A DNA stretch of 18,162 nucleotides from Candidatus Hermodarchaeum yapensis (lineage in GTDB: Archaea; Asgardarchaeota; Hermodarchaeia; Hermodarchaeales; Hermodarchaeaceae), in the NCBI GenBank assembly GCA_016840405.1, contig JAEOSK010000045.1, positions 1 through 18,162 on the forward strand, given 5' to 3'. Position numbers and translations under genes: made by a program. The notes beneath the pieces are model-generated. The model saw only the letters and a list, made by a program, of their open reading frames with translations. It made no database searches and had not been told where the DNA came from. Positions 267 to 17,392 of this stretch are shown here, in pieces. Each line of letters opens with the position of its first letter. The stretch's first letter is position 1.

Positions 267-316
267 CACTACTACTGCAGTAATCCGTTTAAACCCTTAC
301 TACAACTGTAGTAGTG
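267..316. promoter_or_regulatory. Palindromic bidirectional archaeal-type promoter: TATA box GTTTAAAC (287-294) flanked by a 9-bp inverted repeat
   Basis: CACTACTAC (267-275) is the exact reverse complement of GTAGTAGTG (308-316). The self-complementary GTTTAAAC sits at the centre. Its TTTAAA core is about 25 nt from the minus-strand ATG at 263 and about 21-26 nt from the tRNA-like start at 314. Confidence 0.6.
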
Positions 317-388
317 GAGGTGTTGAAGTGGCACTTAAAGGACCCAAGGGAAACGAGCCCTCCGTGGGTTCTAACCCCACCCTCCACA
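314..388 (+). pseudogene. Degenerate tRNA-like element (class II, Leu-like) lacking a proper anticodon arm
   Basis: Perfect 7-bp acceptor stem GTGGAGG (314-320)/CCTCCAC (381-387) with discriminator A388. Perfect T-arm GTGGG-TTCTAAC-CCCAC (364-380). Variable-arm-like hairpin AGGG-AAACGAG-CCCT (347-361). The D/anticodon region does not fold canonically and is about 10 nt short for a class II tRNA. A T-tract follows. Confidence 0.65.
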
Positions 389-398
389 CTTCTTTTTT
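389..398 (+). terminator. Oligo-T archaeal-type terminator after the tRNA-like element
   Basis: CTTCTTTTTT lies immediately after the discriminator base. Confidence 0.45.
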
Positions 399-417
399 AC
401 TAGTAAATTGGCGTCCC

Positions 418-436
418 AGTCCCGCCCGGGGCTCCA
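418..436 (+). mobile_element. tRNA-Thr 3' fragment; putative att site (island boundary)
   Basis: AGT-CCCGC-CCGGGGC-T-CCA parses as T-loop end, T-stem 3' strand, acceptor 3' strand, U discriminator and CCA. This matches the archaeal tRNA-Thr pattern GCCCCGG...CCGGGGCU. No 5' tRNA half lies upstream. The sequence to the left is much more AT-rich than the operon to the right. Confidence 0.6.
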
Positions 437-8028: not shown

Positions 8029-11000
8029 TCACTCCTCCTTAGGCATCATATCATCTGCATGTATTGCCACACGGATGGGTTTCTGGAGGAGGATATTGGC
8101 TCGTTCTGCTGAGTTTGAGTCCCAAGGGGGATCAAGATTGTCACAATCGGCAGAAGTCTCAATTATATACCCCAAATCAGAGCAAACGATATGATTCCAG
8201 TTCAGATCATCCCAAGTGTCTATCTCACCAGCTTGATCCTCAAGAGGAACATCAATTCCAAACCGGGGCTCACCAACCCGTTCTTCAATTACAAAGTACC
8301 ATCCGGGGTGATTTTCAGAATCTTCAGGATTAGGAGTCACCATCTCTGTATGACCGCGCGCATCTTCCTCTACCAAATCAAATCCAAGGAACGTGATTTC
8401 AGGTGGTAGAGTTCCCCTGAAAATCGGAGTTTTAGTCTTGTCCTCTTCAAAACTAAAGTTCGGTTCTCTGCGCCAAGGTGTTCCGTCATCTGTTCTGCAG
8501 ATATAAGTTTCTCCCTCTTGCGCCTTGACCCACTTTCCTTCCACTGCATAGATTAACGTTGTTGGATATTTTTTGAGGAGATCTCCGCGGATCAGAAGCA
8601 CTAACTTGCGCACTTCGTCGTCACCAGCAGTTGGAGTACGATCATCGGAAGGAAGCGGATTTTGGCCAAGCTTAGCCGGAACCCATTTGTGCTGTCCGGA
8701 ATCCCATTTACGCCATCGGTGGATTTCATTTATGTCTCTCAACTTGGATTTTAGAAGTTTATCAAACTCAACTTCAATCTCTTGAGGCGTCAATTCTTCG
8801 TAATCGTCTAATTCTTCCAGCTCCTGCCTGATCTCGTCTTCCATCTCTTGAGTTGGAATATACTCGCTAACATCCCAGAACTGCATGAAGTATGTGGCAT
8901 CTAGAGGTGAAGGATATTCCCGCCAGAGCAACTCACGGGCCATCTCTGCATTAGTCCCGACCATGTATGACTCGATGAATTTCCGGTTTGTCTCTAGAAG
9001 GCCTATTGTGTTCTGCGGGACAAATTCCAGTCCCGGCAGCAGGAGCTCCTGTGACAAATCACGAAGAGGTTCGTACATAGGTTGTGAAAATACTGGACCT
9101 ATCCTGATTGGAGTCAAATCCTCGTCAACCATATCGCTGAAGCGAAACTGAAGTTTTGTTCTGGCAAGGACTGTGGCTCGTGGATTTAGGGCATTGACCA
9201 AAGCCGATTGTATTTTTGACAGATCAAGAGGTTCTGGAGGTATGATTGTTTCAAGACCCCTGTCTAGAAACTTTTCATGAGCCTGGACAGCATACTGTAG
9301 GAACTTCTCAGGATCAAGTCCTGCTAATGGATCTGGCTCTCCCTCTGGCAAGACGAATGATGGAGTCTCTAGCGATGAATCCGCCTCAATCGAGATGCCT
9401 CGGAGTTTTTCAGCGTTGATATGTTCAGCATTAACTTGATGGGACATTACAGTATGAACGTAGAGGGGGAGAAGATACCGCAAGATAACAGTGAGAAGCA
9501 CAATTGCGATAACAATGTAAGGCAGTATAACCTGCAACGGACTGAAACCAATTAGAAACCTATATGCCCACATAAGGCAGAATAATCCCAATGCAAGGAC
9601 CGATATAATGAACAGAAGAATCCATCTGAATTTTAAACCAAATATTTCGATGATTCGGGCTCGAGGTGGCCGCAGAGATTCTGATATGCCACCAAGCGAT
9701 ACCGTCCCGTCGGGCTCTGGAGGTTCACCTGCAGGCGCAATCTCATCTTCGTTCAACCTCTCCAACAGGCTTTTTCTGTTTGGATCCTCGTCTTGTTTCT
9801 GGCTGCTGGCGAGTGGGCCTCTTGGCCTCTGAATACGGCGAAATGCAGGCGTGAGAACTGAGATAGGAATGCGGCTTTTATTGTTGATAAGGTGCTGGAT
9901 TGTTACACTAGCAGGCTTCCCACCTTCCTCTGTGTCGATCAGCACTCTTGAATGCAGCTTTGATGTCAGAGCTATGAGATTATCTGTTGAAAGTTGCTGA
10001 AAAGAACCGGCATGCAGTTTTTCTCCGACTTCCATAGCAAACTGACCTTGTCTGAGTCTCTGATTGGCTTCAAGGACTGTCCCAACCTGCTCCCATGCCG
10101 AAGCCATCAGATGCTCCTGCTGGTCCTGAATCACAAGAGTTCCAAATGCTGAAGTCATTCTGTGACGGGGATCAAGATTCAGCTCGTTAAACCAATCACG
10201 ATCTTCTGGGTCGTTCGAATTCGGAACGTCAGTTGTCACTTCTTTGCGAGATGCCTGCCATGCGCCATACAAAGGCGGTACAATCAGTGGGTTGTCATGG
10301 TGTCCCGGTACCCCTTCATTCGGATAGCTGTTTGGTAGGTTTAACAAATCCTTAAGTTCCGACTGAAATTCGTCTTCTGTATTAGTTGGCCATTTGGTGG
10401 ATTCTGTCCGTAGCGACCTGAGTGCTCCTTCAAGACCAAGCGAGTGTTTTAGTTCATCTTCTTCTGTTAGTTCATCCACGCTGACAATGTTCTCGAAATC
10501 ATACCGAGGATAACGACAGTTGATGTGACGGATGCCTACCCTCTTGTCTATGATACGTGGTTCAAGTAGGCGTACTAAATACTCAAAATCGCCCCTCAGG
10601 CCAGTTCGGAATTCCCACTTGAAAAAGTAGGGAAGCCTAACGGGATCAGAAGAATTTGCATCCCAAGCTGGATCAAGTAGGCATGTCTCCTCTGGAATTT
10701 CTTCACCAAGTCCTGTTAGACGACAGGATTCTAATGTAGAAACTATGAAGATATGGTACAGGACATTTTCTTCCAGTTTGCGAGGACACATAAGATTTGA
10801 AGTCACTAGATGGGGACTGTTTTCCAGAATGTCGGCAAATTCGTCTGGTGTTAACTCTTGCTTTTCAGTTGTCACTTGTACGTGAGCCCATGCCCAACTC
10901 TGATCAAGATCAGGAAGAGGTAGTTTACCGTTTTGTGGTTTCACTTCTATCGCTGGCAAAGGCCGATCTGAAGCTGGATCTAGTTCTTCATACTCACCTA

Positions 11001-14938: not shown

Positions 14939-17392
14939 TCACCCCCATCCGCCCGGTGGATTGCCTGCGTTGACATTATTACGGACTGCAAGCAGTTCAT
15001 CTGCGTACACCAGGCCTGCAACAGCGCCAGGAAGACGCCTAACCCAACTATTCGAAGCAGGGTTGTAGTTGTGGTATCTATATCCACTATTATAACGGGA
15101 CCACATTTCCAAGTCTAATTGATCTGCTGTGAAGTTTGGTGCATTTGGGTAGGATGTCCCTTCATTTGGTGGGTTGCCTCCAGTGGCTCCTACACCTCTA
15201 GCTGGATCCCATATCCATGGATCGCCATTCCGTACTTGGCTCAGGTATGTGAGTGCATCGTTTCTAAACGAATTCAGTCTTGCCAAGCTGTTTTGAACAT
15301 TTTCCTTCCAATTCCACAGTTGACTGAGTGTGGGTGGTGGACGTTTTGTTAATTGACCTATACCATAGCCATTGTCGAATGATCGGAGCACAGTTAAGGG
15401 ACCAGCTCTGTATTGGTTAAGTGTGGCAGGATTGTCACTGAACTGCGTGAAACGCGATTCACGGTGCCCCACAACTTGCATACTAACATTTGCACCAAAC
15501 TCATTTCGAACTGTAGCTTTTGGTGCATTTTTCCCCCAAATCACAAGCGTGTTTGGAGAAGTTCGAACCTGTAAAACAACATCATCAATTTTTACTCTAC
15601 AGTATACTTCAAGATCACCGCCACAGAAAGTATTCCCCCAATTCAATGGCCACTGACCAATAACATCTATCGTGTACCAGTCATCGTTCGTAGGACCAGG
15701 TAAATATATTGTTTCAAAAGTCCTGTTCACGTCCATGTTTGTTGCCGGATCCCATTCTGTATATTGGCCATCGTAAGTAATAGCGAGTCTTACTTCTCGC
15801 GTTAATGTTGCAATGATTGCACTAGACAAGCCCGGTAAACCAACCTCGATAGTTAGAGCGGGCATTCGAGGATCTTCGAATTCAATCGGATGGACTATAC
15901 AATTAGGATTGTTTGGGTTTGGTACCGAATTCGGACTTCTAACAGTCAGTTCAATTTGTAGTATCTTAATCTCATGCATGTTACTGACTGATAAAATCCC
16001 ACCATCTTTCAATGCTACAAGACATACAGAATATACTCCTGGGTCTTCGACTCTTTCTCCTGAATCAAAGCTACCATCCCACAAGAAAGGTGAAATTAAT
16101 GGTGCAGATATATTACCAATAATCTGATTATCGAAATCACGAACCTCAAGAACCATGTCATCAGGCATATCTAACCCACTTGGTGAAGAAACCTCGAAAC
16201 AGATCTCGATGAAAATTGTGCCTTGGAGAAGCTCATCCAATTTTACTACCTTGGTGGAAGAAGGTTCAATCAATACCTGAGCAAGCGTGAATTCACCAAA
16301 GAAGGCTGAAAAAAAAGGTGAACTAAGGAGCTTGAGAACTCTGTTACCATACTTAGTAGGTTTGGCATCTTCCCTGGGGGTCATTGTTGCACCTAGGTTG
16401 TATTCAGTTGCAATTATCGATAGAGCGTGTTGATTTTGCATCAACTGCTCATTGTCTACGCCCTCCCAACGATTAGGGCGATTCTTAAGTTTTGACAACA
16501 ACTCTGCACAAAGGAGTATATTGGTTCGGGGGAAGCGAAGGATGTTGAACAAGTCTATTTTCTGATACGAATCAAGATCAGTATAGTTATCTCGGATTTC
16601 TTTTCTGCGAAGCTCCCTTTGGTCGCTTTCTACTGGTAATTCTCTCCAGAGGTCAGGAAAAACTACCATCGAGGCAGTAGGCATACTAATCTGACAAACA
16701 CCAATTGATTGCTTTGTGAGTTTAGGATTGTCATATTCTTCGTTACTGAGGATCTCTCTAATGGCCTCAATCTCGACACTTCTGACAGACTCTCCTACGA
16801 GATAGACTCGTTGCCATTCATATTCTTTGGGTCTGAAGGACACCTCTTTATATACTATAGCTGCAAGGAAATCTAAAGGGAATTCATGCTGGGCGGCGGC
16901 CTTTTCAATATATGATTTGAGATCATTTACTAGCTCCCTAGTCGTCTGTGAGTCACCAACCCTTGCTGCTGCCCAAACCCAATTGGCAAGTGCTGAATCA
17001 ATAATACCAACTCCATTGATATACTGCTCTAACTCTGCGTTCCTTTCCACTATTATTTGACTCAATGTTAAAGTGACAACAGTGTTTCCTCCTACAATTA
17101 CATCAACAACAACTCGCAATTCACCTAGGTTTTCAGGCGTGTATTCATTAATACCGACATTCGTTGTTTCTTCCTCTAGCTCACTTGGTACGGATAAAGG
17201 AAGGAATGTCCATTCATATCTGTCAGCCATGGTATTGTTCTGTGCGAAGACAGCATAGTCAATACGAGTGCCCTTGGCAATTGGCGATGTAAGGTAACTG
17301 ACAAGGGAGTAATTCCCACTAGAAAATGCTTGACCAAGGTCAGAGGCTTGCATACCTTCTGGTATTCTTGCTTCTGTCTTCCGTACAGTCAT
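14939..17392 (-). CDS. Multidomain protein (817 aa) with two lysozyme-like/SLT-type transglycosylase domains separated by FlgD-type Ig-like modules; putative peptidoglycan-degrading effector
   Basis: Domain 1: IEKAAAQHEFPLDFLAAIVYKE(183)...SIGVCQI...NILLCAELL...EYNLG...YGNRV. Middle: FLWDGSFDSGERVEDPGVYSV (FlgD-Ig-like motif). Domain 2: QVVGHRE(645)S...GYGIGQLT...WNWKENV...RYNSG...YADEL. No obvious signal peptide. Confidence 0.75.
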   Translation of the reverse strand: MTVRKTEARIPEGMQASDLGQAFSSGNYSLVSYLTSPIAKGTRIDYAVFAQNNTMADRYEWTFLPLSVPSELEEETTNVGINEYTPENLGELRVVVDVIVGGNTVVTLTLSQIIVERNAELEQYINGVGIIDSALANWVWAAARVGDSQTTRELVNDLKSYIEKAAAQHEFPLDFLAAIVYKEVSFRPKEYEWQRVYLVGESVRSVEIEAIREILSNEEYDNPKLTKQSIGVCQISMPTASMVVFPDLWRELPVESDQRELRRKEIRDNYTDLDSYQKIDLFNILRFPRTNILLCAELLSKLKNRPNRWEGVDNEQLMQNQHALSIIATEYNLGATMTPREDAKPTKYGNRVLKLLSSPFFSAFFGEFTLAQVLIEPSSTKVVKLDELLQGTIFIEICFEVSSPSGLDMPDDMVLEVRDFDNQIIGNISAPLISPFLWDGSFDSGERVEDPGVYSVCLVALKDGGILSVSNMHEIKILQIELTVRSPNSVPNPNNPNCIVHPIEFEDPRMPALTIEVGLPGLSSAIIATLTREVRLAITYDGQYTEWDPATNMDVNRTFETIYLPGPTNDDWYTIDVIGQWPLNWGNTFCGGDLEVYCRVKIDDVVLQVRTSPNTLVIWGKNAPKATVRNEFGANVSMQVVGHRESRFTQFSDNPATLNQYRAGPLTVLRSFDNGYGIGQLTKRPPPTLSQLWNWKENVQNSLARLNSFRNDALTYLSQVRNGDPWIWDPARGVGATGGNPPNEGTSYPNAPNFTADQLDLEMWSRYNSGYRYHNYNPASNSWVRRLPGAVAGLVYADELLAVRNNVNAGNPPGGWG

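Follow-up and report, generated by a model that had tools for sequence, protein, structure and literature searches.

We propose that P0001, a protein encoded on the 18,162-base stretch of DNA analysed here (the window), is a polymorphic, cassette-bound effector that degrades peptidoglycan, with a host that is most likely an Asgard archaeon and with bacteria as its targets; for this reading as a whole we see an even chance. The window is the entire contig C52 of the metagenome-assembled genome (MAG) of Candidatus Hermodarchaeum yapensis. Five minus-strand genes, P0001 to P0005, occupy nearly all of it and constitute a complete copy of the DUF6603 cassette in its usual gene order, P0001 being the head gene and P0002 the DUF6603 protein. 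P0002 is the sole window protein with a family match, found in Pfam, and no mention of DUF6603 was found in the literature searched.

Based on structural models, conservation and gene context, we propose that P0001 operates as follows. Residues 1-365, comprising an N-terminal peptide, an Ig-like domain and a Tse3/SLT-like domain (together referred to as the N-module), would dock P0001 onto the N-terminal region of the translationally coupled DUF6603 protein, the stop codon of P0001 directly abutting the ATG of P0002. Residues 366-817, in which a pair of Ig-like domains precedes the second SLT-like domain with its motif set intact, would act as an exchangeable warhead that cuts the glycan strands of bacterial peptidoglycan, while the first lytic domain, in which all three SLT motifs are likewise intact, may represent a second active glycosidase. 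Exit of P0001 would then occur only within a five-protein DUF6603 assembly, the third protein of which has putative membrane spans, or by lysis. The host would be a Hermodarchaeota-group Asgard archaeon or a mobile element, and, as such a host makes no peptidoglycan, the targets would be neighbouring bacteria, attacked for antagonism or feeding.

Modelled folds of the two lytic domains

P0001 was modelled as two parts (residues 1-400 and 366-817), each with an alignment of natural relatives. The AlphaFold2 model of residues 1-400 (pLDDT 84.2) consists of an Ig/FN3-like sandwich followed by a helical domain, and that of residues 366-817 (pLDDT 91.8) of two beta-sandwiches and a C-terminal lytic-type domain (Table 1). 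In these high-confidence models both lytic domains are GH23/SLT-like folds, combining a lysozyme-like fold, a catalytic Glu at the C-terminal end of a helix, and motifs of the GLMQ and AYNxG types. This is in agreement with the preliminary description, drawn from the DNA letters alone, which had recognised two lysozyme-fold motif sets (E183, E645, GVCQI, GIGQL, YNLG, YNSG) joined by Ig-like spacers: all motifs are found at the positions it gave, its approximate domain coordinates (about 16330-16915 and about 14980-15530) fall inside the boundaries determined here (16295-16972 and 14942-15526), and the spacers are beta-sandwich domains in the models.

In the first domain, E183 is part of YKEVSF (nt 16835-16852) and located near the end of model helix 173-186, with Val as the next residue, followed by GVCQI at residues 231-235 and YNLG at 331-334 (EYNLG, 330-334). 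Exhaustive structural comparison of residues 141-366 identified Tse3 (4luq) as the top match (Z 12.8, 182 aligned residues, rmsd 3.8), with further matches to MltE (Z 11.2), MltC (10.9), MltF (10.7), Slt (10.2) and g-type lysozyme (9.7), and additional ones to Slt70 and the phi6 and phiKZ lysins. The ESM Atlas, which provides independent evidence through its own model and language-model features (TM 0.55-0.70 across both lytic domains), linked this domain to 'Transglycosylase SLT' clusters (feature score 0.95) and to Tse3-catalytic/Rhs clusters (PF22115; TM 0.63-0.64). When the N-module profile was compared to PDB sequences, LAAIVYKE was aligned to the catalytic Glu-Ser motif LLAAIGYQES of MltF, at a marginal E of 0.03. 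Preceding the domain, residues 26-117 match FN3, PKD and CBM structures (Z 8-9.7), and T6, E7 and P11 of the N-terminal peptide are invariant or almost so among relatives. Foldseek runs on the two multi-domain models were dominated by Ig-domain matches and were useful solely for their Tse3 rows.

In the second domain, E645-S646 is part of HRESRF (nt 15449-15466) and located at the end of model helix 271-281 (protein residues 636-646), with GIGQL at residues 677-681 and YNSG at 767-770 (RYNSG, 766-770). Structural comparison of residues 623-817 returned MltF as the best match (Z 8.0, 136 aligned residues, rmsd 3.2), along with GH124 (Z 7.4), MltC (7.3), Slt (7.0), MltE (6.9), g-type lysozyme (6.8), Cj0843c and MltD, all of which are lysozyme-like folds and, except for GH124, members of GH23; the ESM Atlas comparison to SLT clusters gave TM 0.55-0.63. 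The motifs are well conserved among 54 homologues of the C-terminal module, with E645 present in 49, S646 in 51, G677 in all 54, Q680 in 46, Y767 in 48, N768 in 41 and G770 in 48. A Glu-Ser / GxxQ / YNxG set of this kind is typical of family-1 lytic transglycosylases.

At the sequence level the likeness fades. Structural alignments of the lytic domains to GH23 enzymes correspond to 13-19% sequence identity, and PDB sequences yielded nothing with either phmmer of P0001 or hmmsearch with the C-terminal module profile. PF22115, the Tse3 catalytic domain, has no sequence match to P0001, the likeness being structural only. As the Pfam SLT model (PF01464) matches neither P0001 nor anything else in the MAG, both domains are regarded as divergent GH23-like. 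The two also differ from each other: hhalign of the N-module and C-module profiles was not significant, aligning only the two GxxQ motifs with a probability of 1%.

A conserved head with exchangeable tails

Among 5.8 billion proteins, 14 relatives of P0001 were detected, all of which share residues 1-365 only and continue beyond residue 365 with Amidase_2, VanY, PG_binding_1 or unrecognised sequence. A further 67 N-module loci, from at least 10 bacterial phyla, were obtained by scanning species genomes and metagenomes. Judged from these sequences, residues 1-365 constitute a conserved module, recognised here for the first time, with which DUF6603 cassettes begin in many bacterial phyla. Its 50 complete proteins occur in three forms, namely stand-alone (about 325 residues), 800-960 residues and about 1050 residues, with PG_binding_1 (6), Amidase_2, Peptidase_M23 and Peptidase_M74 as the recognisable partners; every recognised catalytic or wall-binding partner domain in N-module relatives is peptidoglycan-directed. 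The most invariant feature across the 50 proteins is DLFNLLRFPK (residues 280-289) rather than the catalytic set.

The Ig-Ig-SLT part has relatives of its own, with 168 cluster representatives at E ≤ 0.001 that include fusions to PhoD-like, PKD, TIG or DUF6402 regions; the named ones are bacterial (Solirubrobacteraceae) and occur in contexts without DUF6603. Since the relatives of P0001 share only residues 1-365, their tails vary and the Ig-Ig-SLT module occurs independently, P0001 displays by sequence comparison the layout of a polymorphic effector, with a conserved head and an exchangeable enzymatic tail, which likewise is new here. The same comparisons set the two lytic domains apart, the exchangeable and clearly enzyme-like piece being the one that follows residue 365.

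The Ig-Ig-SLT module was also observed in a bacterial six-gene cluster (L097 1-7086; proteins of 729+, 77, 240, 652, 534 and 118 residues) that has no Pfam or PHROG match. That the module is part of a phage tail cluster in bacteria was considered and rejected, as PHROG support is lacking.

A further observation concerns the head module in archaea. The closed Thermoplasmatales chromosome CP070798.1 (L016 10001-11674) encodes a 557-residue head-module homologue that is devoid of the catalytic Glu and of the GxxQ glutamine, and no DUF6603 cassette is located nearby.

Cassette linkage, predicted docking and export

In most of the 67 loci the N-module gene is situated just upstream of, or abutting, the DUF6603 gene in the same orientation. 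The synteny extends further in nearly all loci with enough flanking DNA, where the head-module gene is followed by DUF6603, P0003 and P0004 homologues, an order found in Bacillota, Chloroflexota, Bacteroidota, Pseudomonadota, Cyanobacteriota, Actinomycetota, Chlorobiota and others.

Docking was assessed in one complex prediction, of P0001 residues 1-366 with P0002 residues 1-460, both with alignments. The docking score was 0.75 (0.77, 0.75 and 0.62 in three runs), compared to 0.45 for the best control; the score mark used is reached by 58 of 80 solved complexes and by 2 of 110 mismatched pairs. At least 41% of the contacts are common between runs, and the pLDDT of the partner is at least 84. 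Conserved residues are over-represented in the P0002 part of the interface (0.53 versus 0.45, permutation p 0.006), among them P223, G224, G225, Y227, R248 and P250. The complex model, which is likewise new, thereby supports binding of the P0001 N-module to the N-terminal region of P0002.

As the preliminary description had noted, P0001 carries no signal peptide, and a hydrophobic N-terminus is absent from P0001, P0002, P0004 and P0005 alike. The only strongly hydrophobic, membrane-span-like cluster across the cassette lies in the middle of P0003 (window 9450-9655). From the leaderless nature of P0001 we infer that it can leave the cell only via the DUF6603 assembly or via lysis. General family scans of the window recognised no candidate for a cognate immunity gene.

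Two departures from the usual arrangement were observed. In L052 and L055 the order is rotated, the P0004 and P0005 homologues coming before the head and DUF6603 genes rather than after P0003. At loci such as L010, L014, L018 and L022, where the head protein has the short form of about 325 residues, its gene is separated from the DUF6603 gene by 2-3.5 kb of additional coding sequence, which may represent a separately encoded variable part.

Points against the proposal and alternative explanations

Several observations, on the protein as well as on its host, weigh against the effector proposal. P0001 matches zero Pfam families even at E ≤ 1, and nothing in NCBIfam, PHROGs or PADLOC. The structural Z scores of the second domain are moderate, reaching 8.0 at most. 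The Glu at the position of E183 is retained in 23 of the 50 complete N-module proteins and lost in 27; hence, the family-wide role of the N-module is probably docking or structural, and it is the sub-group nearest to P0001 that retains Glu, GVCQ and TEYNxG jointly. The preliminary view of P0001 as a double lytic enzyme is thus upheld for the folds, both being GH23-like, but not for the equivalence of the domains, the N-terminal one being a cassette module in which the Glu is often missing. In the complex model, the interface residues of P0001 show lower conservation than the remainder of the module (0.26 versus 0.43), leaving the interface uncertain in detail, and the contacts include the low-confidence loop 196-200 as well as residues flanking E183. 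The predicted interface may therefore be incorrect; alternatively, the first active site may be masked by docking.

These features bear on another explanation, namely that the substrate of the lysozyme-like domains is not peptidoglycan but, for instance, chitin or an archaeal or eukaryotic envelope glycan, or that the first domain serves as a protein-binding scaffold only. A different substrate would fit the presence of a GH23 chitinase among the first-domain matches (3w6b, Z 8.8) and of the GH124 cellulase among those of the second domain, and a scaffold would fit the many family members without the first-domain Glu and the E183-adjacent residues in the modelled interface. However, all recognisable partners of the N-module are peptidoglycan-specific (Amidase_2, VanY, M23, M74, PG_binding_1), and the second domain has the complete motif set of family-1 lytic transglycosylases, such that we regard this explanation as improbable.

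The remaining points concern the host. The MAG comprises 2.7 Mb in 77 contigs, with estimates of 86% completeness and 4.4% contamination, and contains an archaeal 16S gene. Neither SEDS, PBP transpeptidase nor Mur ligase was detected in this 86%-complete genome, and the GC content of the contig (0.449) is that of the genome (0.447). The nearest relatives of P0005 align over the full length with identities from 77% down to 42% and include proteins named as Hermodarchaeota (57%) and Odinarchaeota (42%) and one from the LCGC14 marine-sediment metagenome (46%), compared to about 33% identity over about 61% of the length for bacterial relatives. In a tree of P0003, an ENA scaffold and the LCGC14 contig fall together with the window (SH-aLRT 99), and this group joins the Odinarchaeota contig and a JGI contig, the head protein of which is an N-module with Amidase_2 (SH-aLRT 99); the clade is distinct from all named bacterial copies. 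An aminotransferase on the Odinarchaeota contig has 65-67% identity to its counterparts in two Asgard genomes, and an orphan gene of the LCGC14 contig has relatives of 41-56% identity in four Asgard genomes.

Against an archaeal host, no marker gene is present on the window contig, and the tetranucleotide distance of the contig falls within the outermost 3.6% of 18-kb chunks of the MAG. Of 400 Asgard species genomes, only 2 carry DUF6603, neither of them among the 90 of high quality, and it was not found in the 14 congeners and 4 other family members examined; the second DUF6603-carrying Asgard genome (G206) has a different cassette type without a P0001-like gene. The contig flanks have no close counterpart in the 14 congeners. 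In addition, P0006, the left 556 bases, and two open reading frames (ORFs) of 302 and 203 residues on L041, a longer assembly of the same DNA as the window, are without close counterparts in 40 relatives, and the 302-residue ORF has only unnamed relatives in a large protein collection. The S9 peptidase of contig L100 is just 31-38% identical to Asgard genes, such that none of these sequences ties the contig to the Asgard chromosome. Finally, the named relatives of both lytic modules are all bacterial.

These observations, together with the MAG contamination and the occurrence of the same head module in cassettes across many bacterial phyla, are what would be expected if the contig were misbinned bacterial DNA. 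P0001 would then open the wall of its own producer for assembly or exit of the complex, as do the specialised lytic transglycosylases of secretion systems and flagella, or it would attack rival bacteria. We consider this rather unlikely: apart from the matching GC content, the window belongs to a well-supported clade whose members were independently binned to Odinarchaeota and Hermodarchaeota MAGs and to the LCGC14 assembly, separate from the named bacterial copies, one of its contigs bears the aminotransferase, a housekeeping gene close to Asgard homologues, and repeated misbinning of one cassette clade into different Asgard classes would require a systematic cause. The probable carrier is hence an Asgard archaeon, or one of its mobile elements, although, with the whole contig lacking marker genes and DUF6603 being rare in Asgard, an archaeal host is not established. 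The archaeal origin assumed in the preliminary description accordingly gains from the clade on Asgard-binned contigs and loses from the missing marker gene and the rarity of DUF6603. Its suggestion that the enzyme is aimed at bacteria has the same standing, being the simplest reading of a MAG without peptidoglycan synthesis genes if the host is archaeal, which is only probable.

Alternatively, the cassette may have moved from bacteria to an archaeon as a passenger, its wall-cutting domains drifting without substrate or role. The rare and patchy distribution in Asgard genomes and the bacterial named relatives of both lytic modules are compatible with such a relic. Yet the 817-codon frame is intact with all six catalytic-type motifs kept, the Asgard-associated clade is old and diverse, as seen from the P0005 identities, at least one other clade member (L002) heads its cassette with an intact N-module and Amidase_2, and a near-identical copy occurs in several independent metagenomes. 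A relic therefore appears to be a minor prospect, and the effector proposal is retained in what follows.

Two observations on the host genome and on P0005 are added here. The 16S match on contig C71 (L001 619-4212) extends over 3.6 kb for a 1478-position model, corresponding to an intron-like insert of about 2 kb. The P0005 proteins of the Asgard clade possess extra coiled-coil-like sequence (about residues 500-650) outside the portion covered by bacterial homologues. Nearly the whole stretch is moreover contained in two sequencing runs, of marine sediment and seawater metagenomes, which may be its source; no RNA run is among those listed as containing it.

Sequence features and candidate island boundaries

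The features of the window are compiled in Table 1.

Table 1. Genes, P0001 domains and boundary element of the 18,162-base window (positions in window coordinates)
Feature	Position	Strand	Length or residues	Remarks
P0001	14939..17392	-	817 aa	First core gene of the cassette; frame intact
Conserved N-terminal peptide (MxVRKTExR[IL]P) and Ig/FN3/PKD-like beta-sandwich of P0001	17042..17392	-	aa 1-117	Model, structural matches
First GH23/SLT-like (Tse3-like) domain of P0001	16295..16972	-	aa 141-366	Model; E183, GVCQ, EYNLG, family motif DLFNILRFPR (aa 280-289)
Two tandem beta-sandwich (Ig/FlgD_ig-like) domains of P0001	15530..16267	-	aa 376-621 (376-479; 480-621)	Model; relatives match FlgD_ig
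Second GH23/SLT-like domain of P0001	14942..15526	-	aa 623-817	Model; E645-S646, GIGQ, YNSG
P0002	11408..14938	-	1176 aa	DUF6603 protein (PF20248, E 5.5e-116); aa 1-460 predicted docking partner of P0001 aa 1-366
P0003	8029..11415	-	1128 aa	Hydrophobic membrane-span-like cluster at about aa 588-655
P0004	2948..7996	-	1682 aa	Cassette core protein; without family match
P0005	557..2890	-	777 aa	Last cassette gene; nearest named relatives in Hermodarchaeota and Odinarchaeota MAGs
P0006	17642..18162	-		Small gene upstream of P0001, truncated at the contig edge; 211 aa in L041
44-nt element	393..436	+		Adjoins tRNA-3'-end-like sequence; candidate boundary repeat of an island of about 18 kb

A second copy of the 44-nt element, 88.6% identical and in the same orientation, is located at L041 2290-2333, just upstream of P0006 and beyond the right end of the window. 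This repeat layout is consistent with a mobile island of about 18 kb. At both island ends (window 314-436; L041 2290-2390) tRNA-like pieces are present, each beside a perfect 12-base palindrome, TTTACTAGTAAA; the piece at window 314-390 resembles an acceptor/T-arm element without an anticodon arm, the others being 3'-end-like fragments. ARAGORN and Rfam called no tRNA among the island-end pieces or in the window flank, and the palindrome and tRNA-like pieces were found nowhere else in the MAG and gave no convincing match to MAG tRNAs. The genus cassette-array core TWTCGAAGAC is absent from the window, and these features likewise provide no anchor to the Asgard chromosome.

Relation to known systems and implications

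That archaea possess peptidoglycan hydrolases with antibacterial function is an idea already published, and killing of bacteria was tested for the haloarchaeal enzymes Woldo and Danwoldo of Halogranum salarium (PLoS Biol 2025, PMC12352652). The accompanying survey, which was Pfam-based and required a catalytic as well as a wall-binding domain, was positive for 175 of 3,706 archaeal genomes, with hydrolases lacking signal peptides somewhat enriched in genomes with contractile injection systems, and with Asgard entries in its S2 table, including Helarchaeota LysM+SLT proteins with Sec signals (PMC12352652). P0001 resembles these enzymes as a putative wall degrader in a peptidoglycan-free host, with a patchy distribution, a location on a small contig or mobile DNA, and bacterial ancestry, the archaeal origin being probable in the present case. 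The published enzymes are Pfam-detected and mostly equipped with Sec/Tat signals and classic wall-binding domains, whereas P0001 has neither a signal peptide nor a known wall-binding domain. In contrast to them, P0001 also contains two GH23-like domains and belongs to a giant-protein cassette, and, having no Pfam domains, it falls outside the survey definition.

With the family-1 lytic transglycosylases (Slt70, MltC, MltE, MltF; PF01464), P0001 shares the fold of both domains, the helix-end Glu (followed by Ser in the second domain), GxxQ and YNxG. It differs in having no Pfam SLT match, in uniting two Ig-separated domains in one leaderless protein, and in its DUF6603 cassette context, as opposed to the cell-wall housekeeping context of these enzymes. 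Tse3, the type VI muramidase effector of Pseudomonas aeruginosa, and the Rhs proteins with PF22115 provide the best structural match of the first domain. Tse3 and P0001 are both of a leaderless, wall-degrading type, Tse3 being delivered by a multiprotein machine on a counterpart of which P0001 would depend. However, the window contains neither T6SS, PAAR, VgrG or Rhs genes nor a Tsi3-like immunity gene, the machine here being the uncharacterised DUF6603 cassette.

Polymorphic toxins and effectors (LXG, MIX, Rhs, CDI) combine a conserved N-terminal trafficking domain with a variable C-terminal toxin domain. The 365-residue N-module with its interchangeable C-terminal enzymatic domains, encoded by a gene fixed beside the machine genes, follows the same principle. 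Unlike in those systems, the P0001 N-module itself has a lysozyme fold, and the variable domains seen so far are all wall-directed.

Compared to DUF6603 (PF20248) cassettes in general, the head gene of the window lends the cassette a recognisable, predicted biochemical activity. P0001 thereby represents the first recognisable biochemical handle on a widespread and unstudied giant-protein cassette, in one lineage of which the head protein combines a predicted DUF6603 docking site with peptidoglycan-directed domains that are interchangeable. We tentatively extend this to a wider model, which we hold to be possible but doubtful, in which the DUF6603 cassette is an undescribed machine that delivers or displays polymorphic wall-degrading effectors via a lysozyme-fold plug, with a distinct Asgard-resident lineage used against bacteria. 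Since P0001 is undetectable by Pfam, surveys based on Pfam, including the published archaeal one, would undercount such enzymes, and P0001 would have been missed.

If the host truly is an Asgard archaeon, its lack of a peptidoglycan wall removes the ambiguity between action on the own wall and on a foreign wall, and the finding would point to direct antagonism towards bacteria, or to predation on them, by the prokaryotes most closely related to eukaryotes. In the wider model, the archaeal copy would also demonstrate that the wall-cutting enzymes of the cassette are aimed at other cells, not at the wall of their producer.

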